A stretch of 61,434 nt of DNA, from the IMG/VR virus record IMGVR_UViG_3300033076_000601, positions 1-61,434 of that record; one strand, given 5' to 3'. Source of the stretch: a virus (lineage: Duplodnaviria > Caudoviricetes). This document shows positions 6,425-49,558 of this stretch, one piece after another. Every line of letters starts with the position of its first letter. The first letter of the stretch is position 1. The position numbers and the translations under genes were made by a program. The notes beneath the pieces were generated by a model. That model ran no database searches and was not told the origin of the DNA. It saw only the letters and a list, made by a program, of their open reading frames with translations.

Positions 6425-6534
6425 TATCTGTATCTAAAAGGGATTAATAATTTGCGTGTCTTGATTAGTACACCTTCTTGAAAGAAGCCGATGATTTCAT
6501 AACGGCCTTCGATTCTAATTACTCTAGTTTCCAT
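6424..6534 (-). CDS. Small early protein (36 aa, METRVIRIEG...), first ORF after the long leader
   Basis: Translated by hand; A-rich upstream sequence. Confidence 0.5.
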   Translation of the reverse strand: METRVIRIEGRYEIIGFFQEGVLIKTRKLLIPFRYR

Positions 6535-6551
6535 AATTGTTTGTTTTTGGT

Positions 6552-6601
6552 TAGTGGTGCAGTGAGTATCGCTCTCATTAATTAGTCATTCTAACTGCAC
6601 C
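6552..6601 (-). ncRNA. Mini tRNA-like element lacking an anticodon arm
   Basis: GGUGCAG/CUGCACC 7-bp acceptor-like stem, UUAG/CUAA hairpin, UGAG-AGCGAUA-CUCA T-arm-like hairpin, 3' ACUA. Confidence 0.45.
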
Positions 6602-6784
6602 TAATGTTTTCTAGCCACGTTAAACTGCTAGACCTCTTTTATTCCCTACACACATGCCATTTAGCGTGTGGTTTTGACGTTGACCACCTGAGTAGTGTAT
6701 CAATCGCCCCGACTTCGCGGAGTCTTTATACTTACCGCATCGGACTCGTGTGACCTACCGAGTTAGTTTATTGTCTTACATGAT

Positions 6785-6795
6785 GTCAAAGAACG
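6785..6795 (-). promoter_or_regulatory. boxA-like antitermination signal
   Basis: CGTTCTTTGAC on the minus strand inside the untranslated leader; resembles rrn/lambda boxA. Confidence 0.5.
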
Positions 6796-7082
6796 TTAGC
6801 TTAGAGCTTGTTAGCAGACCTACCTTTGAACCACTTAGCCCCGGTGAACTCCCCGAAGGGCACTTAGCTAAGCTTTATCGTTTCGGTCACCTTTAGCAAC
6901 ATGGCTCGTCGCTTGTACGTCTAAAGGCTTGCTGTTTATTCGACACTAGCTTGGAATTTATTACCACCGCCTTACCCTACTTATTACTTTCACCTTGTCA
7001 CATTGCAGAGGACTAAGCATTGGTCAGTGGTCACCGATATATAGTGCCTTATTTCAATTGTTATTAGCTCGTTTGCTTGATA

Positions 7083-7114
7083 CAAATATATGGCAACAAT
7101 TCGGATTGTGCAAA
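7083..7114 (-). promoter_or_regulatory. Bacteroidota sigma-A type early promoter
   Basis: TTTG (7114-7111), 20-nt spacer, TATATTTG (7090-7083). Confidence 0.75.
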
Positions 7115-7379
7115 CTTTTTAAACATTATTTTCACTTTTTATGCTAATTTATATTCATTCTAAATAAGGACATGTTTGATTTGCTTTGTAAGTTGTTGAA
7201 AAACAAGTAGTTACAAAACATGCGTTTCCAGGAACACGATAAATTATTTGGTATTTATTTTTGTAGGTAGGTGCAACCTCCTCCTTTCAGGCGCGCAACC
7301 AACACGCGCAAACGTAACGGCAGGCCGGCCGATTGATTGGTTAAATGGACGGCGCGCCGGTCGGTCTGAATGTCGTTCT

Positions 7380-7407
7380 ATTTAACATAATGCTAATTAT
7401 ATGACAT
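7380..7407 (-). other. dif-like XerC/XerD recombination site
   Basis: Minus strand ATGTCATATAA-TTAGCA-TTATGTTAAAT; XerD arm identical to canonical dif; 11-6-11 architecture. Confidence 0.7.
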
Positions 7408-7620
7408 GCCTAGCGCGCGACATGACAAACGGCAGCGCGCTCTGTAGCCCGTCTGTATTGGTATTGACGACAAACGGACATGCCTACCAAAAAGCCAAAA
7501 AATCCGGCCGAAAAGTTCGAAAAGTAGACCCCCCGGGGTAAAATCAGATCGGTTTTCCTTTCGGCCCGGCTCGCGTCAGATGGGGGTATTACCCAATACT
7601 TCTATACATCTAAAAATTAG

Positions 7621-7628
7621 TATATTTG
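7621..7628 (+). promoter_or_regulatory. TAnnTTTG (-7) promoter at the start of the late strand
   Basis: TATATTTG followed after 4 nt by ATG. Confidence 0.6.
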
Positions 7629-7632
7629 CACT

Positions 7633-7761
7633 ATGATCATAACCTTCTACCCAACGCTCGGACTATCGCTTGGTATTGAATATTTACCAGCAGAGGACGA
7701 GATGCGTCCGGAGTTGATCTTACATTTGTTAATTTTTAAAATATCTATATTATGGCAATAA
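7633..7761 (+). CDS. Small hypothetical protein (42 aa), probably leaderless
   Basis: Translated by hand: MIITFYPTLGLSLGIEY...ELILHLLIFKISILWQ. Confidence 0.5.
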   Translation: MIITFYPTLGLSLGIEYLPAEDEMRPELILHLLIFKISILWQ

Positions 7762-8807
7762 TGCGCACAAACCGACTCACGTCGAAAACTACTACACCTC
7801 CTAGTAAGTCTAAAAGTTTTACACCAGCATCACAGTTAGAAGCTCAGGATGCTGCTTATAAGAAGTATAAGGAGCAAGATCTTCCTCTTTACGAAAAGAG
7901 AATGCAGAGATACAACGAAGAGATTAAATCTCCACCTAGAGATTACACTTCTCTTGGCGGTAAGAAAAATGTTAAATATTTAGAAAAAGCTGAAGTATCT
8001 GCATATAATAAAATGAGATTGAGTAGTGACCCTACAGCTATTGAATTTGGAACTGTTGGAGTTGGTAAGTCTTACTCTAAAAAGGCAGGTGATAAAGATT
8101 TTATGATTGCAACTGAGCACACCACTAGCAACCCAATAAAACCAACTGCGCCTACTAAGGCTAATCCGGCTGATTGGTCTAATGTTGAGTTAAACAAGAT
8201 GGATACTAAGAAGTCAGTTGTAAAAACTAAGCCTGGTAAATTAAAAGAACTTAAGAGTCAAGAAGCGCGCCCTGGTTTTGATGCTCCTGGTGTTGAGACA
8301 AAAACTGTTTCTAAAACTAGAGCGGCCATGACTGGTGGTGGTGATAAACTTGTCAGATCAAAGAATCCAAAAGGTAATTTAGGTGCTGCTCGTGTGACTA
8401 CTGAGTCTAATAAGGGCAAGCTTGGTTACAACCGTCAAGAGAAATTATTCAAGGCTTATGCTGGCACATCTGTTTTAGATGAGAGTCATATTGGAAAATC
8501 TGCTAATGAAATTAGGGATTACAAAAAAGAGATGAAATCTCAACGAAGTGCTTACCGTAAGGAGGGTAATGTTGAGGGTGTTGCTGCTACCGGTATGGAG
8601 ATCAAGCAAGCGCGTCAAGCTGAGCGTTTTGTTAAGGGCAAGCAGACTCACTTTAATGATGAGAATTACAGAAAGACTACTGGCAATGCAGGTCGTATTG
8701 CTCCTGACTATAAAAAATCAGCTGAAAACGCTGCCAATCGCAACACAATGCAGTCAAAACTAGCTGCTGTGGCTGCTAGGGGTAAGAATAATACAAGTTT
8801 GTACTAA
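7752..8807 (+). CDS. Basic Lys/Ala-rich protein, possible internal virion or DNA-associated protein
   Basis: Long ORF, basic low-complexity composition, followed by a terminator. Confidence 0.6.
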   Translation: MAIMRTNRLTSKTTTPPSKSKSFTPASQLEAQDAAYKKYKEQDLPLYEKRMQRYNEEIKSPPRDYTSLGGKKNVKYLEKAEVSAYNKMRLSSDPTAIEFGTVGVGKSYSKKAGDKDFMIATEHTTSNPIKPTAPTKANPADWSNVELNKMDTKKSVVKTKPGKLKELKSQEARPGFDAPGVETKTVSKTRAAMTGGGDKLVRSKNPKGNLGAARVTTESNKGKLGYNRQEKLFKAYAGTSVLDESHIGKSANEIRDYKKEMKSQRSAYRKEGNVEGVAATGMEIKQARQAERFVKGKQTHFNDENYRKTTGNAGRIAPDYKKSAENAANRNTMQSKLAAVAARGKNNTSLY

Positions 8808-9062: not shown

Positions 9063-10631
9063 ATGGTAATAAAACATGTACATTTAGGCGATGAAGGTCG
9101 CAAAAAGCTCATTAAAGGCATCAAAACGATCGCTGGAGCAGTAAAAAGCACATTAGGTGCGCGAGGACGCACTGTGTTGATTGAATCAGAGAACCATGTC
9201 GGTGGTATTACTGTCACAAAGGATGGTGTAACGGTCGCAAAGTCAATTAATCTTTATGATCCGGTTGAGAATTTGGCTGTTATGATGATGCGTCAGGCCG
9301 CTGAGAAGACGGCTACTGTTGCTGGTGATGGCACAACCACTTCAATTGTCATAGCAGAGGCTATTGTGGATGCGGCATCCGATGTAATCACATCGGAAAC
9401 CAACGTAACCGAGGTGATCCGAGAGATCAATGACATCGCATCTGACGTTGTGAACCACTTAACGAAACGAGCTAAGAAGTTATCTGGTAAGAAGCTTAAG
9501 GACGTTGCGTCTATTAGTGCGAACAATGACACTACTATTGGCAATATGATTGCTGACGCGTTTAGCGAGGTTAAGATGGTGTCTGTTGAGAATAGTAAGG
9601 ACCATAACACATATGTTGAGGTGATTAAGGGTATTAAGGCTGACAGGGGTTGGACTAGTCGTCACTTTATCACTGACTACAAGCGTCAAGAGTGTGTTCT
9701 AGAGAACCCATATGTATTGATCACTGATCAGGAGATAAACAACTTGCTTAATATTGAGAAGGTATTACAGCATATTGTTGCGCAGAATAAGTCATTGCTT
9801 ATTATTGGCGAGATGACGCCAGCGGCTTTAAACACGTTGAACATTAACGTTGCTCAGGGTAAGATCAAGGCATGTAATATTTTGCCTCCAAACTTTGGAT
9901 ACCGTCAGAAAGATTTATTAGAAGACCTAGCGGTAGCTTTGGACGGTACATACTTCAGTGAGGACACTGGTGATGACTTGTCGTTGATTGACGTTGCTCA
10001 CTTAGGTCGTTGTGCTAAGGTGATTGTTGGCAAGGATAATACTATTTTTATGCCATATGCTAGTTCTCAAGATAATATAGACTCGCGCATTGCTGACATA
10101 AACGATACTATATTTGACGGTATTACTAAAGAGGAAATGGACTTTCGCAGGGAGCGAGTAGCCAATCTATCTGGTGGTGTTGCTGTTATCTATGTAGGTG
10201 CTTTGAGTGACATTGAGCAGAAGGAGAAACGCGATCGTATTGACGATGCTGTGTGTGCGGTTGAGGCTGCTTTAGAGGAGGGAATTCTTCCAGGCGGAGG
10301 TGTTGCTTTGTTTGAATATGCTAAAAACAACTTACGCGGCAAGATTGGTGCTGCTGAGAGAATTATGTTCAAAGCTATAACAGCTCCGATGTGGCAAATA
10401 CTTATAAACGCTGGTAAGGATGCTCAACAGATCATGGACAGTATCTTGCCATTCCCTAATGAGGGTTATGACGTGAAGGGTGAGCAGTATGGTGACATGA
10501 TTAAGCTTGGTATTATTGACCCGGCTAAGGTTACAAAGAACGCTCTATTGAATGCTGTGTCTGTAGCCACAACTATTATGAGCACAAACGCAATTATTAC
10601 AAATATCAGAGCAGATGAAAGTATTAAATAA
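9063..10631 (+). CDS. groEL: Chaperonin GroEL (phage-encoded)
   Basis: TKDGVTVAK, AGDGTTT, EEGILPGGG and GIIDPAKV motifs; no GGM tail; TATTTTTG promoter at 9038. Confidence 0.97.
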   Translation: MVIKHVHLGDEGRKKLIKGIKTIAGAVKSTLGARGRTVLIESENHVGGITVTKDGVTVAKSINLYDPVENLAVMMMRQAAEKTATVAGDGTTTSIVIAEAIVDAASDVITSETNVTEVIREINDIASDVVNHLTKRAKKLSGKKLKDVASISANNDTTIGNMIADAFSEVKMVSVENSKDHNTYVEVIKGIKADRGWTSRHFITDYKRQECVLENPYVLITDQEINNLLNIEKVLQHIVAQNKSLLIIGEMTPAALNTLNINVAQGKIKACNILPPNFGYRQKDLLEDLAVALDGTYFSEDTGDDLSLIDVAHLGRCAKVIVGKDNTIFMPYASSQDNIDSRIADINDTIFDGITKEEMDFRRERVANLSGGVAVIYVGALSDIEQKEKRDRIDDAVCAVEAALEEGILPGGGVALFEYAKNNLRGKIGAAERIMFKAITAPMWQILINAGKDAQQIMDSILPFPNEGYDVKGEQYGDMIKLGIIDPAKVTKNALLNAVSVATTIMSTNAIITNIRADESIK

Positions 10632-10872
10632 ATATTTGATAGTAAGAAAAGTTGCCGAGCAGAAGCAGACCAAGAGTGGTTTGCTTCTAACCGGTGAGGA
10701 TGCAAATGACATGCGCTATCATAAAGCCGTTACCCACTCTGTAGGAGACAGTATCATTGGAATAAACCCAGGTGATACTGTACTATATGACAAAGTTCAA
10801 AGCCATGAGATAGTGCTAGACAATGAGCGCTATACTATAATTCAGGAGAAGGACGTTGTTTGCGTTCTTTAA
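10615..10872 (+). CDS. groES: Co-chaperonin GroES
   Basis: QTKSGLLL mobile loop, VG..I.PGD.VLY, I.EKDV; adjacent to groEL. Confidence 0.9.
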   Translation: MKVLNKYLIVRKVAEQKQTKSGLLLTGEDANDMRYHKAVTHSVGDSIIGINPGDTVLYDKVQSHEIVLDNERYTIIQEKDVVCVL

Positions 10873-11335
10873 TTCTTCTGTTAAAATCAACAATCGCAAT
10901 AGCTAAGGTCTTCTGGTGAAACGGTGCGTTATCACGGAAGGCCTTATTGCGTCTTTTAGATGTGGGTATTGGCTCTCTTCCGTCTAGCTTTTTATAAATT
11001 GACGTAATCATTTTCTTGGCTTTAAATGATACTTCATACATTTGGCCTTGGTTGTATGTCTTTTGTCTCCATTCACTAATCCAGCCTTCTTTAAGTAACC
11101 TATTAAAACGCTGGCTATCCCATGTCATAAAGTTTTTATACTCGTCAAAGTCTGTCTTTGTGAACAGTCTATTGCCGTGTAAGAACAGTAGCATTTCAAG
11201 ATCTGATAATCCGATCCCATAGTTTACTTGGGCCCAACGTCTAACGATTGCCCATTCTGTCAGCCAGTCGTACTGCAGAGGTCTACGAACCACTTTTTGG
11301 TCATAGATAAATAGTCTTCTTACTTTTTTTTTCAT
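10835..11335 (-). CDS. Putative winged-helix DNA-binding regulator
   Basis: LSDLEMLLFL...FNRLLKEGWI...YEVS.KA pattern; only credible minus-strand gene in the late block. Confidence 0.55.
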   Translation of the reverse strand: MKKKVRRLFIYDQKVVRRPLQYDWLTEWAIVRRWAQVNYGIGLSDLEMLLFLHGNRLFTKTDFDEYKNFMTWDSQRFNRLLKEGWISEWRQKTYNQGQMYEVSFKAKKMITSIYKKLDGREPIPTSKRRNKAFRDNAPFHQKTLAIAIVDFNRRIKERKQRPSPEL

Positions 11336-18058: not shown

Positions 18059-18266
18059 AAAAATTTCCATTGGTCCTGACTACATGAAGTGCATGCACTA
18101 CATGGTAGGTCAGACTGTCCTAGATAAAACATGGGAGATTAACACTATTCGAAAAGAAGATGATGGGTCAATCTGTGTATGGATTATTAAGGATGGTGAG
18201 ATTATTAAATGGAAATCCTTTTCTAATACAATGCCTATTGCAATAGAATACAAAATAGATTACTAG
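18045..18266 (+). CDS. Conserved phage protein (IRKISIG.DY...MHY.VGQ)
   Basis: Motif; coupled ORF. Confidence 0.6.
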   Translation: MSIIRKISIGPDYMKCMHYMVGQTVLDKTWEINTIRKEDDGSICVWIIKDGEIIKWKSFSNTMPIAIEYKIDY

Positions 18267-18823
18267 TGAAATCACCATACTGCTTCATCATTAAACCAGT
18301 TGGTCAGAGGCGGTACGATAACATAAAGAAATTCGGAGATACCGATTTCTATATCAGTTCCTCTCAAGAAGACCATAAAACATCTAACCGCCACGCTGAG
18401 GTGGTTGCAGTTCCTATTTACTATAATGGTCCTGTAAAAGCTGGTGACATAGTCCTTGTGCATCACAATGTCTTTAAATTTTATTATGACATGAAGGGCC
18501 GTCAGAAAAGCAGTTGGAATTATATCATGGACGATCTTTTTCTAGCTGAATTAGATCAGGTTTACATGTTTAAAAGGGATGATAAGTGGAATGCTGTCGA
18601 TCCCTTTATTTTTATCAGGCCCATTCCTAGCGAAGACAAAATTATCAGTACTTTAGGTGCATTTGAGGAAATGTGGGGTGAAGTTGTGTATAAGACATCT
18701 ACACTGACAAATGTAAGTGTTGGAGACATAGTATCATTTACGCCGGATAGTGAATATGAGTTTAGGGTGGATGATGAAGTACTTTACCGAATGTATAACA
18801 AGAACATATGTCTAAAAAAGTAG
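18266..18823 (+). CDS. Tandem GroES-like protein
   Basis: Two units of FI.P...(A/G)EVV...V..GDIV, the GroES beta-barrel pattern. Confidence 0.55.
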   Translation: MKSPYCFIIKPVGQRRYDNIKKFGDTDFYISSSQEDHKTSNRHAEVVAVPIYYNGPVKAGDIVLVHHNVFKFYYDMKGRQKSSWNYIMDDLFLAELDQVYMFKRDDKWNAVDPFIFIRPIPSEDKIISTLGAFEEMWGEVVYKTSTLTNVSVGDIVSFTPDSEYEFRVDDEVLYRMYNKNICLKK

Positions 18824-40063: not shown

Positions 40064-43000
40064 ATGGAAAACGAATGGACACCACCAAGTGATGCAGTAG
40101 AGGCAACTTCATCTTTTGTTCCTCCATCTGACGCAGTAAAAAAAAAAGATCTTACGGCATCTGGATCGGTAAAACCTTCATTGGCAAGATCATCGACCAC
40201 AACAACTATAAAGCCTACGGTATCTTCAGTTTCAAAAGGAAAAGCTGACGGTATATATTCTTTTCCTGGTGAAGATAATGCCATTTACAAAAAAGAGAAT
40301 GGGCAGTGGTTTAAGTCGTTTAAGGGTGAGTATAAGTACTATCCAATTACAAAAGGTGACGTCCAAAACCGAATTCAATCACTCGAGAAAAACGCTCAAT
40401 CTTTAGAAAATTATAGCTTTGAAAAACCAGAGCCAGAAATGCCCGAAGTTCCTAAAGAACTACAAGGAGATAGAAATACTATAGAATATTGGGATAAATT
40501 ACTAGCAGCTGGAAAAATAAATAAGAAGACTTATGACTATCACGCTGATAGAATTTCATCATCTGACTTAGAAAAGTCAGTTGTTAAATCTGCCGCTGTA
40601 AAACCTAAACCACTAACAGAGACGCAGAAAAAAGAGCAAGAGGCTTTTGATAAATCATTCGGTGTTGTTTCAGAGGCTGAGTATCAAAAAAGAAAGGCAG
40701 AATCTGACGTAATTGATGCTAAGGTAAGTCAAATTACTTCTGATCTAATAGATTATAGTGAAGGAGATGTAGTTCCAAAAGTACAAGAACTTATTAAAGA
40801 TTACCCATATTTGCAAGTATCTGAATCTGGTGCTGGGTATGATGAGCTTGAGATTAAAAACGTTATTACTGGAGAAAGTAAAAAAATAAATTTAGATAAC
40901 TGGACTTCAGATAGAGATAAAGAAGAGGCTAAAAGACTGCAAGGTTTTTTAGATATTCAGATGACATCGAAAGACTATGTAGAGCAATTTGACAAAGTAA
41001 ACAAACTTAAGGTTAAAATATCTACAGCCACACCTACTGAAAGAATAGAATTATCTCAAAAATTATTAGAGGAACAGGCTAAATTAACAGATTTAAAAAA
41101 CATTAGATATAATAAAGCAAAGTCTGATAAATATAAAGCTGCTGCTATCTATGACAAGAACGCAAAGGAAAATATTAAGACTGAATTTGCTAAGCTTCAA
41201 ATACAATCTATTGACTACGCTGAAAAAGCTAAAGACTATTCAGATTGGGCAAAAACTGTTAATGATGCTAAGTCAAAAGGTTTAATTACTCAAGAGCAAT
41301 ATGATTTAGAATATGCTCCTAAATTAGCTCAAGAAAAAAACATGCTCATTGAAGAAAAAAATAAAATCAATGAGAACTTTAGACAGACACAATTTGAAAG
41401 CACCTCTATAGATAATATTGCGGCTGATAACTTTGCTATTGAAGCAGAGAGAGGTAATATACTTACAGGTACGGCATTTTCTGCATTGCAGGGAGCTGAG
41501 AATTCTCTTAGATTTTTACTTGAGACAGGACCTTTTGAGCAAGGTGATTTCAAGGGATTACTTACAGAAGCTGCACCTGGATCCATTAGTGATGTATATA
41601 CATCATCTGAAGGTAGAAATGCTTTAGAACAAATTGTATTTGGATTAGCCAACTCAGGTGGATCAGCTTTAGTTGGTGCAGCTACAGGAGCTTCATGGTT
41701 AGGTCTATACGCCTCTTCATATGTAAATATGAAAGACCAGATGAGTACACCTGAATTTGCAGATGTGCCTGAATACCAAAAGATATTAATGTCTGGTGTT
41801 TATGGTAGTACTATTGGTCTTCTAGAAGCATATGGTGTTGGTAAATGGTTTCAAAAAACACCTGCCGGGAAGGGGCTTACTAATTGGATTTTAAAAAGAA
41901 CTATTGCAGAACTTGGTAAAGATGCAACAACAGAAGCAATTGAATTAGGTATAAAGAAAAATTTAAAAGCAGCTATAACAAATGGTCTTATTCAAGTAAC
42001 TGCATCTGGTCTTGTTGAAGGATCAACAGAGCTTGCTCAAGAGGCTGCCGATATGGTTTATAAGGATGTATTTAATAGACTAGCTGATAAAGAATACTTT
42101 GAAAATCCAGACTCGTGGGCTGGAGTTGCTGACAGATTAAGTCAGTCCTTTTTACTTGGTTTTGCTGGTGGTGCCGGAATGAATGCAATAAGCCAGACTA
42201 CTCAGATTGCAAAAAATGAACTTACTAAATCTCAGATTAATAACATTTCTCAATTGATTAATGATCCTGACTTATATGATACTTTCAAGCTTAATCTAAA
42301 AGACCAAATACTTTCTGGACAAATATCAAAAGATGAGGCTAAACGCCAAGTTGCAAAGATTAATGAACTAGAGGGTACCTTAAATAAAATACCAAGCAAG
42401 GTAGATAAATTTGAGGCGTTTAAGTTGATCACCGAGAGAGATGAATTACAAAAAGAAATTGCAGGGAAAGACCCTGCTCTTGTCGCAGCTCAAACAGAGC
42501 GCGTCAATGCTATCAATGATGAATTAAAACAATTAAGTTATGCCGTTCAAGAGCAAGCAACAAGTGAAGTACCTGTACAGCCAGGAGCCGCAGTTAGCGG
42601 AAAAGTGGAGGAAAGAAAACCCGAAACAGGACTTGAAGAAACTACCCAAGAAGGTGAAAAAGTAACTGCACAGATTAATGTAGCTCCTTTATTTGATACC
42701 AAAGTAACTAACGTTCAAGAAGCAGAAGCCATTAGACAGTCTGATATGTATAAAACATATAAAAATGACATGGTCAAAACTGCAGATACATTTGGAGTCA
42801 CTGTTGATGGTATTGATGATACTATTGGCGGATATCAAGGAACCTCAGAAGTTTCTACAGTAGTTAATGTAACCGGCGATTGGAATAATATAATTGAGTT
42901 TGCTGCAGTATATGGAGCAATGACTCCAGAAGTACAAGACTCAACTATTGCCGGTAGAACTGTAAAAGCAGGAACTACCGAACATAATACTGATCGATTA

Positions 43001-46000
43001 GATATTGGCATTGATAATCAAGAAGCAGCATTAAAAGCTGCAAACGATTCAGGATTTAGTGATGATGGATTTACTATATCTGGAGATAAAATAATGTTTT
43101 TTAGCGATTTAAAGGAGCCAATTGCTAATTTTGATGATAAATACGTTACATTTGTAAACAAATACATAGAATATGGAGGAAAAATTACCTCAGAAAGTAG
43201 ATATGCCGCTCAAACAGAATTCATCAACTCAGACAGAAGGGCAGAAATCCTTACAAAGATTGAAGGAGATGCAGTACAGCGAGCCGGACGGGAAGGCATT
43301 CGTGATGTCGTCAAAAGTGCAACGCCAAGAAACGAAGAATATAGAAACAGAAGAAGACGGTCTGAGAGCAGGAAACTTACGCCTCTTGAGGGCGCGCCAG
43401 CAGTTCCAGGCATTAACGGGCCGGACCCACAACTTGTTGCAGTCGCAGAAAAGTACGCAGCCGACAATGGCATCGAACTCAAAAGACAGTCAGAGTACGT
43501 CGAAGTAGACGAGCAAAGGGCCAAAAGAATAGCCGACGCTTACGAGCAGATGGCTGATAATCCTCAGGATCCAAAAGTAAAAGAAGCATACCAAGATCTT
43601 ATAAACCAAACAATTGCTCAGTATCAAGCGTTAGTTGACGCCGGGTATAAGTTTTGGTTTATGGACTTAAATATTCCAAGCAATGAAGAGTATGCAGCAA
43701 GCCCATACAATGCTCTAAGAGATTTAAGACAGAATAAGGAGATGGGTGTATTCCCAACTACTGATGGATACGGAGAAGGTGAAATAACACAAGAACAAAT
43801 TAATGCAAACCCACTACTAGCCGACACAGGTATTAAATGGCCTGTAGGTGGATTAGATGGAGAAATGAAACCAGTACTTGCAAATGACTTGTTCAGAGCA
43901 GTTCATGATGCGTTTGGTCATGGTCTCGAGGGGGCTGGGTTTAGAGCAAGAGGCGAGGAGAATGCATGGCAAGCTCACGTCAGATTGTTTACAGGACCTG
44001 CAGTCGGAGCTATTACTAGTGAGACTAGAGGCCAGAACTCTTGGTTAAATTATGGTCCTTTTGGAGAAACCAATAGAACAGCCAAAGTAGAAGACACTGT
44101 ATTTGCTGATCAGAAGATTGGCCTTATGCCTGAGTGGACTTGGTCTGAAGGTCGTGCAGGTGATATGACTTATCAAGATAATCTAGTAACTAATGACAAC
44201 ATCAATGATATAATTGATAGTCAAGATATAGAGACTAGACAAAAAATAGCTAAAAGTGCTAAGCTTGTAATGATGGCTATTCCTGAAGCAAAAATTTATC
44301 TTCATAATAATACAGCTGAATATGATGCAGCCGTAGGTGAGCAAACTAAAGGAAAAGAAAAAGGAAGATTTATTGGAACTGATATGGCTATCCATGTTAA
44401 TATGGAGGAAGCTACTTCTCACACACTATTACACGAAGCATTCCATTATGTTATTCTTAATAAAGGAATAGATGCAAAAGTACTTAATGATTGGACAAGA
44501 TCACTTAAATCTATTATCAAAGATGAAAAAGCAATTAAGCGTCTTGATGATTTGACTAAAAAATACTCTGCAGAAAACCAACCGGAGGAATACATTTCAG
44601 AATTAGGCGCTATTATGGGCGCAGCGAAAGGACAATTAAGTACAAGTGCGTTACAAAAATTTAAAGCACTAATCAATAAGATCGCAAAAGCAATTGGATT
44701 ACCACCAATATTTACAGCGGCATCTACAAGACAAGATGCGGTTGATTTCATTAATACTATAAGTAAGCAGTTGATTACTGGTGATCAGATCTTTGCTAAT
44801 GGATTCCAAACAAGGATTGTGCCAGCCGATTTGGCCCCTAAAAAGCAAGTAAAAGTATCTGAAGATCAAAAACTTACATTTGTTAAGCAGTCAGATATTA
44901 TAGATTTTAAAGCACTTGTTAATAACATTGTATCTAAAGATCAAAATGTTTGGTTTTGGGTTGCTGACCAACTTGGGCGTGGAATGTACTCAGATGCAGA
45001 AATAAATGGCGAACATTATTTAGATGCAGGTCCGTCATATGCATTAGATCCTGAAAATAGAAAGGAAGGTATTATATGGGCATCTGGTAAATCAAAAGCA
45101 GATTTACAAAAATCAATTAATGATAGTGATTATATATTTATTATAAGTGGATCACCGCAGATATCTAAATTATTTAATAAATCTGTATTTGATTTGTATG
45201 CTAAAAAGATAGGTGATTACAAATCTTTTAAAGATAAATTGTTAAAATTAGGAACAGTTAAAGCAATAAGAGATGTATTAGATGCGCATGATTCATGGGA
45301 TTCTATTATGGAAGACGCGTCAGTAGATAATCCAAAAACAAAAAAAATAGGTACAGGACGTAAAAAATTATTAGTTGCTTTAAATGAATCATTAAAAAAA
45401 CCTAATTCATCAACATATAAAGTACTTGAAAGTTTAAATGCCATAATTGATATTAACTCACTTAGAGATGGATTCTATTTAGAAAATAATTTCGAAATGG
45501 GAGATGTAATGCTTGTATTAAAACCAACTGGTGTTGGGGGTAAAGCAAATCATTCTACATATGAAAATAATATACTAGGTGAAGTTATTGGTGTTCCAGA
45601 TATTATTGTAAACTCATTTGATATTATGCCTGAAGATGTGCGTAATAAATATAAAAATAGCATAGAAAGATCACAACAACAACAAACGGTTGCTCCATAT
45701 GGTTCTGGAATTAAAAAAATTCAACAAGTACCAAACATCAAAAAACAAAAAGGATTTAGCAAGCAAGAGGCTATTAGAAAAGCCAAAGAAAAATATGTAC
45801 TATCTGTAAAGGAAAGAGGTAACACACCAGAACAGGGTGTCACTTCAGCGCTTGAGGACTTGAGAAAGTCAGAGTGGTATAATGAGGCTGATGACTTAAT
45901 GAGAGAAGAAGTTGAAAGAGAGCTTAAGAAATTCTTCGGTGAGAAAATGAAAGCAGCTCCTTCTATCAAAAAAGTAATGGCTATTAAGCCTACTAAGATT

Positions 46001-49000
46001 CAAGTTGAGGAAATGGCAGCACTCAAGTCACAAATTAGACTTGAAGCTAAAGCAGCTCGTGAAGCTAAGGGTGACCTGAATGCCAAAAGAAAAGCACTTG
46101 CAGCTGTCATCACCGGTATGGTGAGACAGGGCAAGATAACAGCCGTTCAGGCAAGAAGTATTATCAACAAGGTAAGTAGAGTGAACCTTGACAACCCTGT
46201 GATGGTTGATCGATTGATCAGCTATGCCGAGAGAGTGTTTGACAGAGCTGACTACCAAGAAACATTAAGCAAGGCAGCCAAGATCAGAAAGTCAATCAAA
46301 AAAGCCATGAAGTCAAAGGACCTACAGGCCGAGGTGGCTGGTGTAGCCAAGAGATTCTCTGGTGTTGATCCGTTTATGGTTGAGGATATTGATCAGTACA
46401 TTGAGACAGCTGAGAAAATGTTGAATGCCGTCAGACCTGTCAGAGAGACAGAGGTGCCGCTTCGACAAGCTACTGATATTTACGAGATTAACGAATATGC
46501 GACAGCTCAGATTGAACGTCAAGAGGCGAATAAAAAAGCTGAATTACTTGCGCTGAATAAGTATTTAGTAGACGCAGGCATCATTACTGACGACATGACT
46601 GCCAAGGAGATCCAAGAGATGATCGATATCATTGCAGCTGAGGAATATGAGGTTGAAGATGCTGCTAATAAATTAATTTTCTTAAAAAGCCGCTTTAATT
46701 TTATGGCTGGTATAATAGAAGAGATGATTGTGAATAACAGAGATGTGTTTACAGATGAGCCTCTTTACATAACTCAGAACGAAAAACAACTAATGAGTGA
46801 GGTTCTTAAGTTTGACATCGATAAGTTGTCAGTTAAGCAAGCCGCTCAAGTTCTCGAGGCGATGGATAACTTCATTAACAACGGAATTACTAGTGGCCTT
46901 GAAGCTGTGGTAAAAGGATATATTGGAAATGAGAACGCTAACAAACTAGCTGCATCTGGCCTTAAGTCAAGACCACTAAAAATGTATTGGAACAAAGCTG
47001 TTGGTCGTTTCTTTGGTGAGCAGTTCGTTTCATTGCCATTACTTATTGAGAGAATGTTCCCAGGTATGAAGAAGGGTCTTAAGCTTATGTCTGAGATGGG
47101 ACTTACTGATGTAATCAGAGGTGTATCCAAAGCTGACAGAGAGCACAAGATGATCGTAAAAGATTATACTGGTCAGGATTTTTCTAAAGGTAAAGGATTC
47201 ATGAAGGCTGAGAATGTATACGAGAGAGGTATGATTGCCTTCTTGAGTAGAAATTTAGCCGGAACCAAAACAGAAATGCGTAACGAATTCTTACGTCGCA
47301 TCAAGATGGTTGAGGAGTCTATCAATGCCCTGATGACTGGATCAGAGACAGAAAGAAAAATGGGTGAAGCTTATCAGAAAGTATATGACAAGCTGAAAGT
47401 TGATAGCCAGGATCTTGATGTTATTAAGGCCAATGCTGAGCAGATGAACCTTGATGCTGTTGATTGGATGACACAGCAATGGGCTGAAAAATATAGCGAC
47501 CTATCTGACATTAGTTTGTCTGTATACAACGCAATACTTGGTAGCGATACCAACTATACCCCGGATAGATATAAAGCGCTTGACGAGGCTGATATAGAGC
47601 TAGATGAGAATTTATTGCAGAAAGGCAGCGCGTTTATGGGTGGTCTTGAGTACACTGACAAGAATAAGTCAGGTGTATTGATCGAGACAACTAGACCAAA
47701 GGCATTGCCGAAAGGTCGTTTTGTTAGTCTTGACTTTGATGTCAATAATTTCTCTAGCCTAAAAGGCGCAATGATTGACATTGAGACAGCTCCAGCTATT
47801 CGCCAAGTTGATGGATTTATCAAGTCAGACGGATACAAGAAAATGATCAATGGTGACGATAGAAAAATTCTTACTCGTCGTATCAATAACTATATCATTT
47901 CTGTAAAAGGAAAGACTAGCTTCAATCGAGACAGCATGAGATCAGTTGAGCGATTAGCCAATTTCTTAGGTAGTCTTGGTGTTGGCAAGGCATTAGGGGG
48001 ACTAGACCAAACAATAAAACAGACAGCTCCGGTTATTATAAACACATTGATTAATGCCGGTCGTTTTGATGGTCTTAACTTTGAAATGAATGCAGCTATC
48101 AACCGATCAGGTATGCCGATTGCCAATCGTGGTATTGAGGCTATATCAGGTGTTGAATCTGTTGATGCGTTGATTGATAAGAAAGGAGCAACAGCTGCTG
48201 AGATAGCTAAAGGCATTGAGAAGGTTAGTCAGATTTACATGAAAGCCTTATTGTCTAAGCCAGACGTATGGGTTGCTCGATCTTCATTTATTTCTTACTA
48301 TAAGAATTATTTAAAGACAAAAGGAATATCAACTAACATTGACTGGAAAACACATGAGTGGAATCAGGATGCATTAAACTATGCTCAGATGATGGTTGAC
48401 CGTCAGCAAAACATTTCAGATGAGAAACTAGCTGGTTCATTTATGAGCTCTCCTGATCCTTGGAAAAGCGTGACTAGAAAAGTTATGCTTCCATTTGCTA
48501 CGTTTATCATCAACCAAAAGAACCGTATGCATAATGACTTTGTGGCTTTATTTGGTAGAGGTGCTGAGACTAGTATTGAGGATAGAAAAAGAGCAGCTCG
48601 TTCTTTGATTGGATTAAGTGCAGAGATGCTTGCATATCAAGCAATTGCTTATTTCATTAAGACTCAAATTTATGACAATTTAGCTTCTATGATCACTGGA
48701 GAAGATGATGAGGAAGAGAAAAAAGAACGTTCATTCTTTGGTATTAAAATGACTAATAAGCAATGGAACGCGACTAAGTTTCCTGTTAAGAGTTTAATCT
48801 CTGATATTGTATCTCCATTCCCATTATTTGATGACGCTGTAGTATTTGGCTTTGATGAGTTGATGAGTAATTTCCCAATGATATCTGATGAAGATATTAA
48901 GAAAGCTATACAGGATCAAAATGATGCAAGAGCACTTAAAGGTCAAGATCCAATGGATGCTGAGCAAGAAGCTAATCTAATTAAGAATCTTAAAGACAAG

Positions 49001-49558
49001 AACACATACGCTGTAACATTCCAAAATGAAAGCTTGGGTCGTCAGTATGGTGTCCCTGGAATTGCATTCGACACATATACTGAGCTAGCTGAGATGGCAC
49101 AACTTGCTTATACAGGTGAGTTTGAGGATGACATGGGATTCGGTCCAAAGAAAAAATACATCAGCAAGAAAGACCAAGAGCTTGTCAAGTGGACATTACT
49201 GCCAATGGTTCTATACTCAACAGGACTTGTACCTAAAGATGCTGGTGTTGTATCTAGAAAGGTAGTTAATACAGTCAAGAAGAGATCAATTAGCGAGACT
49301 AAGTTTAAGAACACTAACGAGCTAAAGACTGAACTTGGCCGTAAGCCAAAAGATTGGGAGGAAAGTTTGGTGATGAATACCACTAAGAAGGTACCTACAA
49401 TTGTGGAGGCCATTAAATTTGCCGAAAGATTTGGCGGCCTGACAGAAAGTCAAGGCAAAGAATACGCCAAACTAATAGAAGTTACCGGTGATTATGGTTA
49501 CCTAGACTTGAAGAGAATTCAAGACGGTGAAACGGCTGATCAGATATTAAAGAAGTAA
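40064..49558 (+). CDS. Giant (3164 aa) polyvalent-type internal virion protein with zincin-like HExxH domain
   Basis: TLLHEAFH...EEY, FRAVHDAFGH...GEENAW domain, hydrophobic segments, last gene of late strand. Confidence 0.7.
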   Translation: MENEWTPPSDAVEATSSFVPPSDAVKKKDLTASGSVKPSLARSSTTTTIKPTVSSVSKGKADGIYSFPGEDNAIYKKENGQWFKSFKGEYKYYPITKGDVQNRIQSLEKNAQSLENYSFEKPEPEMPEVPKELQGDRNTIEYWDKLLAAGKINKKTYDYHADRISSSDLEKSVVKSAAVKPKPLTETQKKEQEAFDKSFGVVSEAEYQKRKAESDVIDAKVSQITSDLIDYSEGDVVPKVQELIKDYPYLQVSESGAGYDELEIKNVITGESKKINLDNWTSDRDKEEAKRLQGFLDIQMTSKDYVEQFDKVNKLKVKISTATPTERIELSQKLLEEQAKLTDLKNIRYNKAKSDKYKAAAIYDKNAKENIKTEFAKLQIQSIDYAEKAKDYSDWAKTVNDAKSKGLITQEQYDLEYAPKLAQEKNMLIEEKNKINENFRQTQFESTSIDNIAADNFAIEAERGNILTGTAFSALQGAENSLRFLLETGPFEQGDFKGLLTEAAPGSISDVYTSSEGRNALEQIVFGLANSGGSALVGAATGASWLGLYASSYVNMKDQMSTPEFADVPEYQKILMSGVYGSTIGLLEAYGVGKWFQKTPAGKGLTNWILKRTIAELGKDATTEAIELGIKKNLKAAITNGLIQVTASGLVEGSTELAQEAADMVYKDVFNRLADKEYFENPDSWAGVADRLSQSFLLGFAGGAGMNAISQTTQIAKNELTKSQINNISQLINDPDLYDTFKLNLKDQILSGQISKDEAKRQVAKINELEGTLNKIPSKVDKFEAFKLITERDELQKEIAGKDPALVAAQTERVNAINDELKQLSYAVQEQATSEVPVQPGAAVSGKVEERKPETGLEETTQEGEKVTAQINVAPLFDTKVTNVQEAEAIRQSDMYKTYKNDMVKTADTFGVTVDGIDDTIGGYQGTSEVSTVVNVTGDWNNIIEFAAVYGAMTPEVQDSTIAGRTVKAGTTEHNTDRLDIGIDNQEAALKAANDSGFSDDGFTISGDKIMFFSDLKEPIANFDDKYVTFVNKYIEYGGKITSESRYAAQTEFINSDRRAEILTKIEGDAVQRAGREGIRDVVKSATPRNEEYRNRRRRSESRKLTPLEGAPAVPGINGPDPQLVAVAEKYAADNGIELKRQSEYVEVDEQRAKRIADAYEQMADNPQDPKVKEAYQDLINQTIAQYQALVDAGYKFWFMDLNIPSNEEYAASPYNALRDLRQNKEMGVFPTTDGYGEGEITQEQINANPLLADTGIKWPVGGLDGEMKPVLANDLFRAVHDAFGHGLEGAGFRARGEENAWQAHVRLFTGPAVGAITSETRGQNSWLNYGPFGETNRTAKVEDTVFADQKIGLMPEWTWSEGRAGDMTYQDNLVTNDNINDIIDSQDIETRQKIAKSAKLVMMAIPEAKIYLHNNTAEYDAAVGEQTKGKEKGRFIGTDMAIHVNMEEATSHTLLHEAFHYVILNKGIDAKVLNDWTRSLKSIIKDEKAIKRLDDLTKKYSAENQPEEYISELGAIMGAAKGQLSTSALQKFKALINKIAKAIGLPPIFTAASTRQDAVDFINTISKQLITGDQIFANGFQTRIVPADLAPKKQVKVSEDQKLTFVKQSDIIDFKALVNNIVSKDQNVWFWVADQLGRGMYSDAEINGEHYLDAGPSYALDPENRKEGIIWASGKSKADLQKSINDSDYIFIISGSPQISKLFNKSVFDLYAKKIGDYKSFKDKLLKLGTVKAIRDVLDAHDSWDSIMEDASVDNPKTKKIGTGRKKLLVALNESLKKPNSSTYKVLESLNAIIDINSLRDGFYLENNFEMGDVMLVLKPTGVGGKANHSTYENNILGEVIGVPDIIVNSFDIMPEDVRNKYKNSIERSQQQQTVAPYGSGIKKIQQVPNIKKQKGFSKQEAIRKAKEKYVLSVKERGNTPEQGVTSALEDLRKSEWYNEADDLMREEVERELKKFFGEKMKAAPSIKKVMAIKPTKIQVEEMAALKSQIRLEAKAAREAKGDLNAKRKALAAVITGMVRQGKITAVQARSIINKVSRVNLDNPVMVDRLISYAERVFDRADYQETLSKAAKIRKSIKKAMKSKDLQAEVAGVAKRFSGVDPFMVEDIDQYIETAEKMLNAVRPVRETEVPLRQATDIYEINEYATAQIERQEANKKAELLALNKYLVDAGIITDDMTAKEIQEMIDIIAAEEYEVEDAANKLIFLKSRFNFMAGIIEEMIVNNRDVFTDEPLYITQNEKQLMSEVLKFDIDKLSVKQAAQVLEAMDNFINNGITSGLEAVVKGYIGNENANKLAASGLKSRPLKMYWNKAVGRFFGEQFVSLPLLIERMFPGMKKGLKLMSEMGLTDVIRGVSKADREHKMIVKDYTGQDFSKGKGFMKAENVYERGMIAFLSRNLAGTKTEMRNEFLRRIKMVEESINALMTGSETERKMGEAYQKVYDKLKVDSQDLDVIKANAEQMNLDAVDWMTQQWAEKYSDLSDISLSVYNAILGSDTNYTPDRYKALDEADIELDENLLQKGSAFMGGLEYTDKNKSGVLIETTRPKALPKGRFVSLDFDVNNFSSLKGAMIDIETAPAIRQVDGFIKSDGYKKMINGDDRKILTRRINNYIISVKGKTSFNRDSMRSVERLANFLGSLGVGKALGGLDQTIKQTAPVIINTLINAGRFDGLNFEMNAAINRSGMPIANRGIEAISGVESVDALIDKKGATAAEIAKGIEKVSQIYMKALLSKPDVWVARSSFISYYKNYLKTKGISTNIDWKTHEWNQDALNYAQMMVDRQQNISDEKLAGSFMSSPDPWKSVTRKVMLPFATFIINQKNRMHNDFVALFGRGAETSIEDRKRAARSLIGLSAEMLAYQAIAYFIKTQIYDNLASMITGEDDEEEKKERSFFGIKMTNKQWNATKFPVKSLISDIVSPFPLFDDAVVFGFDELMSNFPMISDEDIKKAIQDQNDARALKGQDPMDAEQEANLIKNLKDKNTYAVTFQNESLGRQYGVPGIAFDTYTELAEMAQLAYTGEFEDDMGFGPKKKYISKKDQELVKWTLLPMVLYSTGLVPKDAGVVSRKVVNTVKKRSISETKFKNTNELKTELGRKPKDWEESLVMNTTKKVPTIVEAIKFAERFGGLTESQGKEYAKLIEVTGDYGYLDLKRIQDGETADQILKK
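42540..42665 (+). CDS. Nested +1-frame small basic protein MPFKSKQQVKYLYSQEPQLAEKWRKENPKQDLKKLPKKVKK
   Basis: Translated by hand; A-rich upstream; resembles recalled MPFKS..Q..YL....P..A.KW phage peptides. Confidence 0.55.
   Translation: MPFKSKQQVKYLYSQEPQLAEKWRKENPKQDLKKLPKKVKK

Follow-up and report, generated by a model that had tools for sequence, protein, structure and literature searches.

Exploitation of host Xer is established for plasmids and for small integrating (IMEX) viruses. The plasmid sites cer (of ColE1) and psi (of pSC101) resolve multimers into monomers with host Xer; both combine chromosome-like arms with a spacer unlike that of the chromosome, and both carry conserved DNA on the XerC-arm side, where about 180 bp of accessory sequence adjoin the XerC arm and bind accessory proteins. 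Among the IMEX elements, those of Vibrio include CTXphi, VGJphi and TLCphi, and in the case of CTXphi it is a host-like XerC-side half of the spacer that permits integration via XerC alone. Phage P1 performs site-specific recombination on its genome by means of its own Cre acting at lox(P). Further IMEX comparators are the enterogokushovirus EC6098, the proviruses of Bacteroidetes microviruses (BMV) and the PhiCjT23-like Flavobacterium phages (PMC7062461, PMC3091885, PMC9719478). In the full-text literature searched, which covers subscription journals thinly, dif mimics are described for ssDNA, filamentous and double-jelly-roll viruses and not for tailed phages.

The locus considered here resembles each of these systems in part. 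The window, by which we mean the whole stretch of 61,434 bp that was analysed, is an entire IMG/VR virus record, classed as linear and with a CheckV completeness of 100; no terminal repeat was found in its 61,434 bp. Like the IMEX viruses, the phage carries a host dif-like site and no recombinase; however, those are small ssDNA, filamentous or double-jelly-roll viruses and are found integrated between dif-like sites, whereas this is a 61-kb tailed phage whose XerD arm is practically invariant and for which our searches returned no integrated form. It resembles cer and psi in having a dif-type core site with chromosome-like arms on an extrachromosomal replicon, a spacer unlike the common bacterial ones and conserved XerC-side DNA, but the replicon is here a tailed phage genome in which no plasmid maintenance genes were recognised. 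Finally, P1 with its Cre/loxP and the plasmid prophages with Xer-like recombinases of their own (PMC8026635) offer a precedent for site-specific recombination by which a circular phage genome stays monomeric or is closed in the first place; there the recombinase is encoded by the phage, whereas here there is a site only, and its use would depend on host enzymes.

Read on the minus strand, positions 7380-7407 spell ATGTCATATAA-TTAGCA-TTATGTTAAAT, exactly as the initial annotation had quoted them. The predicted XerC-binding arm (7397..7407) fits the bacterial xTGTCxTATAA pattern, the 6-bp central region or spacer TTAGCA occupies 7391..7396, and the predicted XerD-binding arm (7380..7390), which matches published dif arms, is followed by an AGA extension (7377..7379). 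The XerD arm had been called perfect, and it is identical at all 11 positions to the dif arm of E. coli MG1655 (as listed by Kono et al. 2011, PMC3025954 supplementary file 2); the 6-bp spacer and the inner symmetry that had likewise been claimed are both there, the two 11-bp arms meeting the centre with the dyad ATAA/TTAT. The window contains the 28-mer in a single copy, and in 100 dinucleotide-preserving shuffles no match to it turned up at three or fewer mismatches. The composite TATAA-N6-TTATGTTAAAT occurs once at up to one mismatch, against 0.01 expected, while the XerD arm alone, with four occurrences in the window at up to one mismatch against 5.56 expected, is not enriched; the signal therefore resides in the whole site. 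The 28-bp site is real and does not owe its existence to chance, and judged by its sequence it is a dif core of the Bacteroidota, XerC/XerD type. At 7340-7349 part of the XerD arm recurs in inverted orientation; relatives do not keep this copy, and it was set aside as a chance occurrence. A short direct repeat, GACATGCCTA, lies at 7403-7412 and 7477-7486, its first copy taking in the outer XerC arm.

That the site corresponds to the chromosomal dif of Bacteroidota emerged from a search of a genome collection with the pattern TGTC-N-TATAA-N6-TTATGTTAAAT. At least 120 contigs matched it, and 72 of 80 titles among the matches listed name taxa of the Bacteroidota (Hymenobacter, Chitinophagales, Flavobacteriales, Bacteroidales and Sphingobacteriaceae among them), the remaining eight falling into other groups, three of them Moraxellaceae. 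The bacterial consensus among the matches listed is TTGTC[C/T]TATAA-TT[A/T]ATA-TTATGTTAAAT-AG. The exact TATAA-N6-TTATGTTAAAT was present in one copy each in five of five genomes, and a stricter motif was found in 51 of 301 genomes of the class Bacteroidia (49 of 299 if the unpublished genomes G171 and G093 are left aside), once in each, with the reversed control scoring in 0 of 301. The dif sites predicted for Bacteroidetes fall where the GC skew shifts (Kono et al. 2011, PMC3025954), with offsets of 0.07 degrees in Robiginitalea biformata, 0.001 in Amoebophilus, 0.9 in Cytophaga hutchinsonii and 1.3 in Dyadobacter; the published sequences are TTGTTATATAATTTACATTATGTTAAAT for C. hutchinsonii and TTGTCCTATAATTTATATTATGTTAAAT for R. 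biformata. Published dif sites with the identical arm TTATGTTAAAT are those of Cytophaga, Dyadobacter, Robiginitalea, Chitinophaga and Amoebophilus, whereas Flavobacterium johnsoniae, F. psychrophilum and Gramella have TTATGTAAAAT instead (PMC3025954). Since the motif found once per genome corresponds to the published dif predictions, the phage site matches the chromosomal single-copy site, and the agreement extends over both arms, the spacing and the two following bases, AG.

The comparison with Bacteroidota dif sites that the initial annotation had in mind thus comes out in its favor: the phage site has the same 11-6-11 layout, the same XerD arm, a XerC arm of the form xTGTxxTATAA and the same AG thereafter, and it is identical to the C. 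hutchinsonii dif at 24 of 28 positions. It departs from chromosomal dif in its spacer, TTAGCA against TTAATA or TTTATA, and in its location, which is a divergent promoter region of a complete 61-kb phage genome and not a bacterial replication terminus. The suggestion that the site could help to identify the host stands as a coarse pointer to Bacteroidota with the TTATGTTAAAT arm and goes no finer than that, though the arms give a weak hint of hosts like Cytophaga, Dyadobacter or Robiginitalea and away from the TTATGTAAAAT-type F. johnsoniae, F. psychrophilum and Gramella. The sequencing runs that hold the stretch or its relatives are labelled as freshwater, aquatic, estuary and wastewater metagenomes.

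The gene content, as obtained from PHROG and Pfam scans of 36, 14 and 53 ORFs, is that of a tailed phage, with a terminase large subunit, portal, virion proteins, endolysin and holin, alongside GroEL, GroES, a primase-helicase, an SF2 helicase, two nucleases and an endonuclease VII. Judged by its terminase, the phage is related to the uncultured MW202828.1 (69% amino-acid identity), to the Flavobacterium 'elemo' podophages (about 44%) and to Cellulophaga, Tenacibaculum and Maribacter phages. The absence of a recognisable integrase, which the initial annotation had stated, held in every scan: no tyrosine or serine recombinase (PF00589, PF00239) matched in any of the six frames, while positive controls were detected, and no integrase appeared in the PHROG and Pfam scans of the 36, 14 and 53 ORFs. 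The same ORF scans recognised no partition, plasmid-maintenance or repressor gene or domain, and the window holds no DNA polymerase of family A or B. A tie between the site and the missing polymerase was considered and rejected, for four relatives that lack the site also lack family A, so that there is no correlation between the two. Several further features deserve mention in their own right. A second protein (18266-18823) matches a PHROG annotated as co-chaperonin GroES, in addition to the GroEL/GroES genes at 9063-10872; an ORF of 3,164 aa (40064-49558), with a small PHROG match and no Pfam match above threshold, closes the structural module; and ARAGORN reports a tRNA-like gene at 52520-52603 with a two-letter anticodon (tt), for which no amino-acid identity was called.

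The site is contained in a 1.3-kb region without long ORFs (6425..7751 according to the ORF lists), which separates small early genes transcribed leftward from a rightward operon composed of a 351-aa ORF, GroEL and GroES. Both GC and AT skew flip sign within this region, which forms the minimum of the cumulative GC skew and thus occupies an origin-like position, and GC-rich DNA flanks the site (about 7270-7600). Between 6300 and 7900, no Rfam family reached its threshold (a Thr_leader at 21.6 bits against a threshold of 55 was taken as chance), and blastn of the intergenic region against deposited phages gave no match. The promoter-like TATATTTG on the plus strand (7621..7628), just before the first rightward ORF with its ATG at 7633, fits TAnnTTTG, which we take to be the Bacteroidota -7 promoter motif. 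Directly upstream of it, and 80-210 nt from the XerC arm, there is a conserved non-coding block (7488..7617) with a column conservation of 0.62-0.93 across 44 non-redundant relatives. Its motifs read GGGTAAT, GGAAAACGAT, GGGGGGTCT and GGCTTTT in relatives with GroEL identities of 64-93%. RNAalifold found no consensus structure in 7488-7617, with an energy of about 0 on both strands, and the block is therefore not a structured RNA; it may represent control DNA upstream of the promoter or, alternatively, a Xer accessory sequence. As to the operon itself, its first large ORF (7752-8807, 351 aa) encodes a lysine-rich, low-complexity protein that belongs to no family and is hypervariable, its identity being 33-55% between relatives that share 84-93% in GroEL. 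Within the rightward operon, a single basic ORF of 166 aa (10835-11335) runs against the other genes; it matches no Pfam family and yields only unnamed viral clusters in the protein atlas, and the homologous position in MW202828.1 carries the depositors' annotation 'repressor protein'.

Lack of conservation in relatives would have spoken against the site, and we therefore looked for it in two samples. Among relatives fetched by the neighbouring 351-aa protein, all three with enough upstream DNA have the site, and in a fourth, with 672 nt upstream only, it was not seen. A larger sample of 74 viral loci was fetched by the phage GroEL protein, that is, independently of the motif, and the site was called at up to two mismatches over TATAA and the XerD arm. 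It was present in 52 loci, absent from five in which the upstream DNA extends over 2,700 nt or more, and 17 loci were too short upstream, so that 52 of the 57 decidable loci have it; this sample is redundant, the 52 sites amounting to 24 distinct 31-mers. Broken down by GroEL identity, the decidable loci with the site number 21 of 21 at 84% or more, 31 of 34 at 60-75% and 0 of 2 below 60%. The site invariably lies upstream of groEL, on the opposite strand and 1.2-2.6 kb away, in a constant place and orientation and in one copy per genome; between the site and the downstream gene there are about 345 to 865 nt, depending on the relative. With column conservation of 0.80, 0.93 and 1.00 across it, against about 0.55 on either side (44 non-redundant stretches of 628 nt), the site is the conservation peak of the intergenic region.

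The pattern of this conservation is instructive. Of the 52 sites, 51 have the exact XerD arm, and all 52 continue with AGA; the XerC arm keeps xTGTxxTATAA, with the inner TATAA present in 51 of 52 and the outer half variable; and the spacer is 6 bp long in all 52 but takes ten sequence forms (TTTGCA, TTAGCA, TTTACA, TATTAA and others). Arms and spacing that are kept around a spacer that is free to vary are what one would expect of a recombinase core site. The cultured lytic phages elemoF, phi40:1 and Panino, as well as MW202828.1, have no site, their best matches at two to three mismatches being at the level of chance, and the five uncultured relatives without it, one of them 99% complete, have no copy elsewhere on their contigs and no integrase in its stead. 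The site is thus dispensable for this type of phage, since relatives without it exist. In 1.5-kb flanks the XerC side is always the less similar one, which is due to the hypervariable 351-aa gene and not to exchange at the site. In one 61,010-nt viral contig of the GroEL sample (L326 and L332) the GroEL is split over both ends with the matched residues overlapping, an indication that a genome of about 61 kb was assembled as a circle.

Sites of the dif type are not confined to this family. At least 119 matches were found in viral contigs, forming about 40 sequence groups, and among the viral matches listed the family of the window is a group of 21, with another group counting 40. The members sampled from other groups proved to be tailed phages as well, two of them with a terminase 1-2 kb from the site, and no integrase was found near the site in the sampled 6-kb windows. 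The two unrelated groups in which the site lies just 1-2 kb from the terminase large subunit gene are represented by L052 and L055; such proximity would be compatible with Xer-mediated circularisation if pac were nearby. In yet another group (L011 at 1085-1126, also L048, L083, L099 and L110), an extra XerD arm, TTATGTTAAAT, precedes the XerC arm of the complete site by 2 nt, an arrangement that looks like a double or hybrid Xer site.

What sets the viral sites apart from the bacterial ones is the spacer. TTAATA or TTTATA is found in 3 of 119 viral versus 91 of 118 bacterial sites among the matches listed (Fisher p ~1e-36), the two sets having been chosen by one common pattern and the viral contigs being redundant (about 40 groups); in the 52 sites of the family neither spacer occurs. 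Among these listed matches, positions 1-3 of the spacer are T, T and A/T in bacteria and viruses alike, and the differences concentrate at positions 4 and 5, where bacteria have A in 109 of 118 and T in 111 of 118 sites while viruses are mixed at the former and have C in 65 of 119 at the latter; position 6 is A in 113 of 118 bacterial and in all 119 viral sites. The XerC-side half of the viral spacer is thus host-like. Chromosomes with spacers of the phage type are rare. One is G008, where TTGTCTTATAA-TTTGCA-TTATGTTAAAT-AG is the sole match in the genome and sits in a housekeeping context of mnmE, succinyl-CoA ligase and TPR genes; another is C. hutchinsonii, whose dif spacer is TTTACA (PMC3025954). 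The G008 site (L259, G008:C149, 5347-5376, between mnmE and the TPR gene) is identical at 28 of 28 positions to the sites of several phage relatives. In a Bacteroidota genome (G004), one and the same dif-like sequence with a single mismatch to the pattern occurs twice, at C1:964765-964786 and 972575-972596, in direct orientation and 7.8 kb apart, while the exact dif is on another contig; this pair could be the mark of a small Xer-dependent integrated element.

From the dif identity, the conservation and the spacer contrast, taken with the lack of a phage recombinase and of an integrated form in the data searched, we infer Xer binding and recombination at the phage site and the purpose they would serve. 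The phage probably borrows host XerC and XerD to recombine its own DNA. That the site is used on the phage's own DNA in the manner of plasmid cer and psi, rather than for lysogeny, is the interpretation we favor, if tentatively and at somewhat less than an even chance. The resolution of dimers, or a carrier or plasmid state, as raised by the initial annotation, is likewise plausible. According to this model, the site would be a functional copy of the dif of the host phylum, with host XerC and XerD binding the two arms; as the phage lacks a recombinase, any recombination at the site would need host enzymes. The partner would most likely be a second phage site, whether on a sister copy, in a multimer or in a terminal redundancy, and the reaction would turn multimers or catenanes of a circular replicating genome into monomers or else close the genome circle. 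Because the spacer differs from that of the usual host at positions 4-5, complete exchange with a chromosomal dif would be disfavoured, and the mismatch would thereby keep the phage from co-integrating with the chromosome while exchange between two phage sites would be unaffected. TTAGCA differs from the spacer of 91 of the 118 bacterial sites among the matches listed, a set that may not include the host's own dif, and a further supporting point is the 130-nt conserved block (7488-7617), which lies on the XerC-arm side like the accessory sequences of cer and psi, though it also overlaps the region upstream of the promoter.

Several observations weigh against use of the site on the phage's own DNA. 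A phage that packages concatemers has no obvious need for monomers, and genes for plasmid maintenance, partition or repression were not recognised. When the 350-nt flanks of 42 relatives were compared for pairs with at least 93% identity on one side and at most 75% on the other, no mosaic breakpoints were found at the site, and recombination between phages at the site has therefore left no visible trace among them. The absence of the site from the cultured lytic relatives, from MW202828.1 and from the 99%-complete relative also has to be accommodated, the host-like XerC-side half of the spacer is what CTX-type integration would need as well, and the spacer comparison itself draws, among the matches listed, on sets obtained with one pattern and on redundant viral contigs.

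Alternatively, the site might be bound without being recombined: XerD and XerC docked in the two-way early control region could serve in regulation, as a roadblock or in DNA architecture, or the site could titrate Xer away from the host chromosome. The missing trace of recombination would fit such a role, as would the location between divergent early operons, some 230 nt from the promoter-like motif. The XerD arm with its AGA is, moreover, under stricter retention in the phages, where all 52 family sites have AGA, than in bacteria, where AG follows the arm in 75 of 118 sites among the matches listed; this suggests that binding strength matters. However, the complete 11-6-11 core is preserved, with its 6-bp spacing, the inner TATAA and the invariant A at spacer position 6, none of which would be needed for binding by XerD only; the variable distance to the downstream gene and the single copy per genome likewise count against it. 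We consider binding without recombination to be quite unlikely.

The initial annotation had also envisaged integration at the host dif, and here the outcome was unfavorable. Lysogeny of the IMEX type, in which host Xer would integrate the 61-kb genome by an exchange between its site and the dif of the chromosome, has precedents in the reports on Bacteroidota ssDNA phages that lack an integrase and are flanked by dif-like sites (PMC3091885, PMC9719478) and on EC6098, for which Xer-dependent integration has been shown experimentally (PMC7062461). A phage without a recombinase but with a dif-like site would fit this lifestyle, its spacers are host-like on the XerC side (TT[A/T]) and different on the XerD side, and the rare chromosomes with phage-type spacers, namely G008 with TTTGCA and C. 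hutchinsonii with TTTACA, also count in its favor. Nevertheless, a search for related prophages at dif and for junctions, carried out on genomes and assembled contigs, found none. A homologue of the phage capsid was detected in 0 of 401 Bacteroidia genomes, a sample in which rare integration could be missed. Metagenomes contain more than 8,000 relatives of the capsid protein, and the longest contig bearing one among the 120 best clusters (78-100% identity) measures 67,947 nt, which is the size of a phage, and therefore none lies within a long bacterial contig. None of the 28 metagenome contigs that match the XerC-side flank and the site is a hybrid junction, all 28 being phage-like on the XerD side as well, and Logan contigs bridge the site in X24, X1, X5 and X6 (24 runs listed) and show no joint to a host. 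Loose contig ends at 7361 and 7376 were examined as a possible joint and discarded, since at these points, within the variable GC-rich flank, the relatives part from one another in sequence. In the genomes and metagenomes sampled, then, the phage is not seen integrated at a host dif or flanked by dif or hybrid sites, even though it shares with IMEX elements the lack of a recombinase of its own. In addition, no repressor-like gene was recognised, and the practically invariant XerD arm is at odds with the phage dif of EC6098, whose most variable parts are the spacer and the XerD arm (PMC7062461). Integration of this kind thus retains only a slim chance of being correct.

It is highly improbable that the likeness to a Xer site is incidental and that the motif is instead bound by a phage protein, for example as an origin or operator, for while other conserved motifs and short direct repeats occur in the same region and the cumulative GC skew has its origin-like minimum there, the site agrees with a bacterial site found once per chromosome over both arms, the spacing and two flanking bases, and a protein specific to one phage lineage would not explain a motif that recurs in about 40 unrelated viral sequence groups among the matches listed.

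Returning to the action of host Xer on the phage's own DNA, we note that conservation of the dif mimic extends over a clade with the very many metagenomic capsid relatives mentioned above, and that a similar site recurs in about 40 viral sequence groups among the matches listed, several of them tailed phages. If host enzymes do act on the site, Xer would have to be counted among the host factors of tailed phages, the site would provide a sequence clue to the host phylum, and it might open a way into dimer resolution in Bacteroidota, which was called unstudied in 2011 (PMC3091885). It is even possible, though on balance doubtful, that this large and abundant clade of virulent-looking tailed phages of freshwater Bacteroidota and dozens of other tailed-phage lineages use host Xer at a dif mimic as a regular step of genome processing, be it to resolve multimers or catenanes or to circularise, with a spacer kept unlike that of the host so that the phage would never co-integrate. 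Were this to be true, it would add to the life cycle of tailed phages a dependence on Xer for which there is no earlier description.
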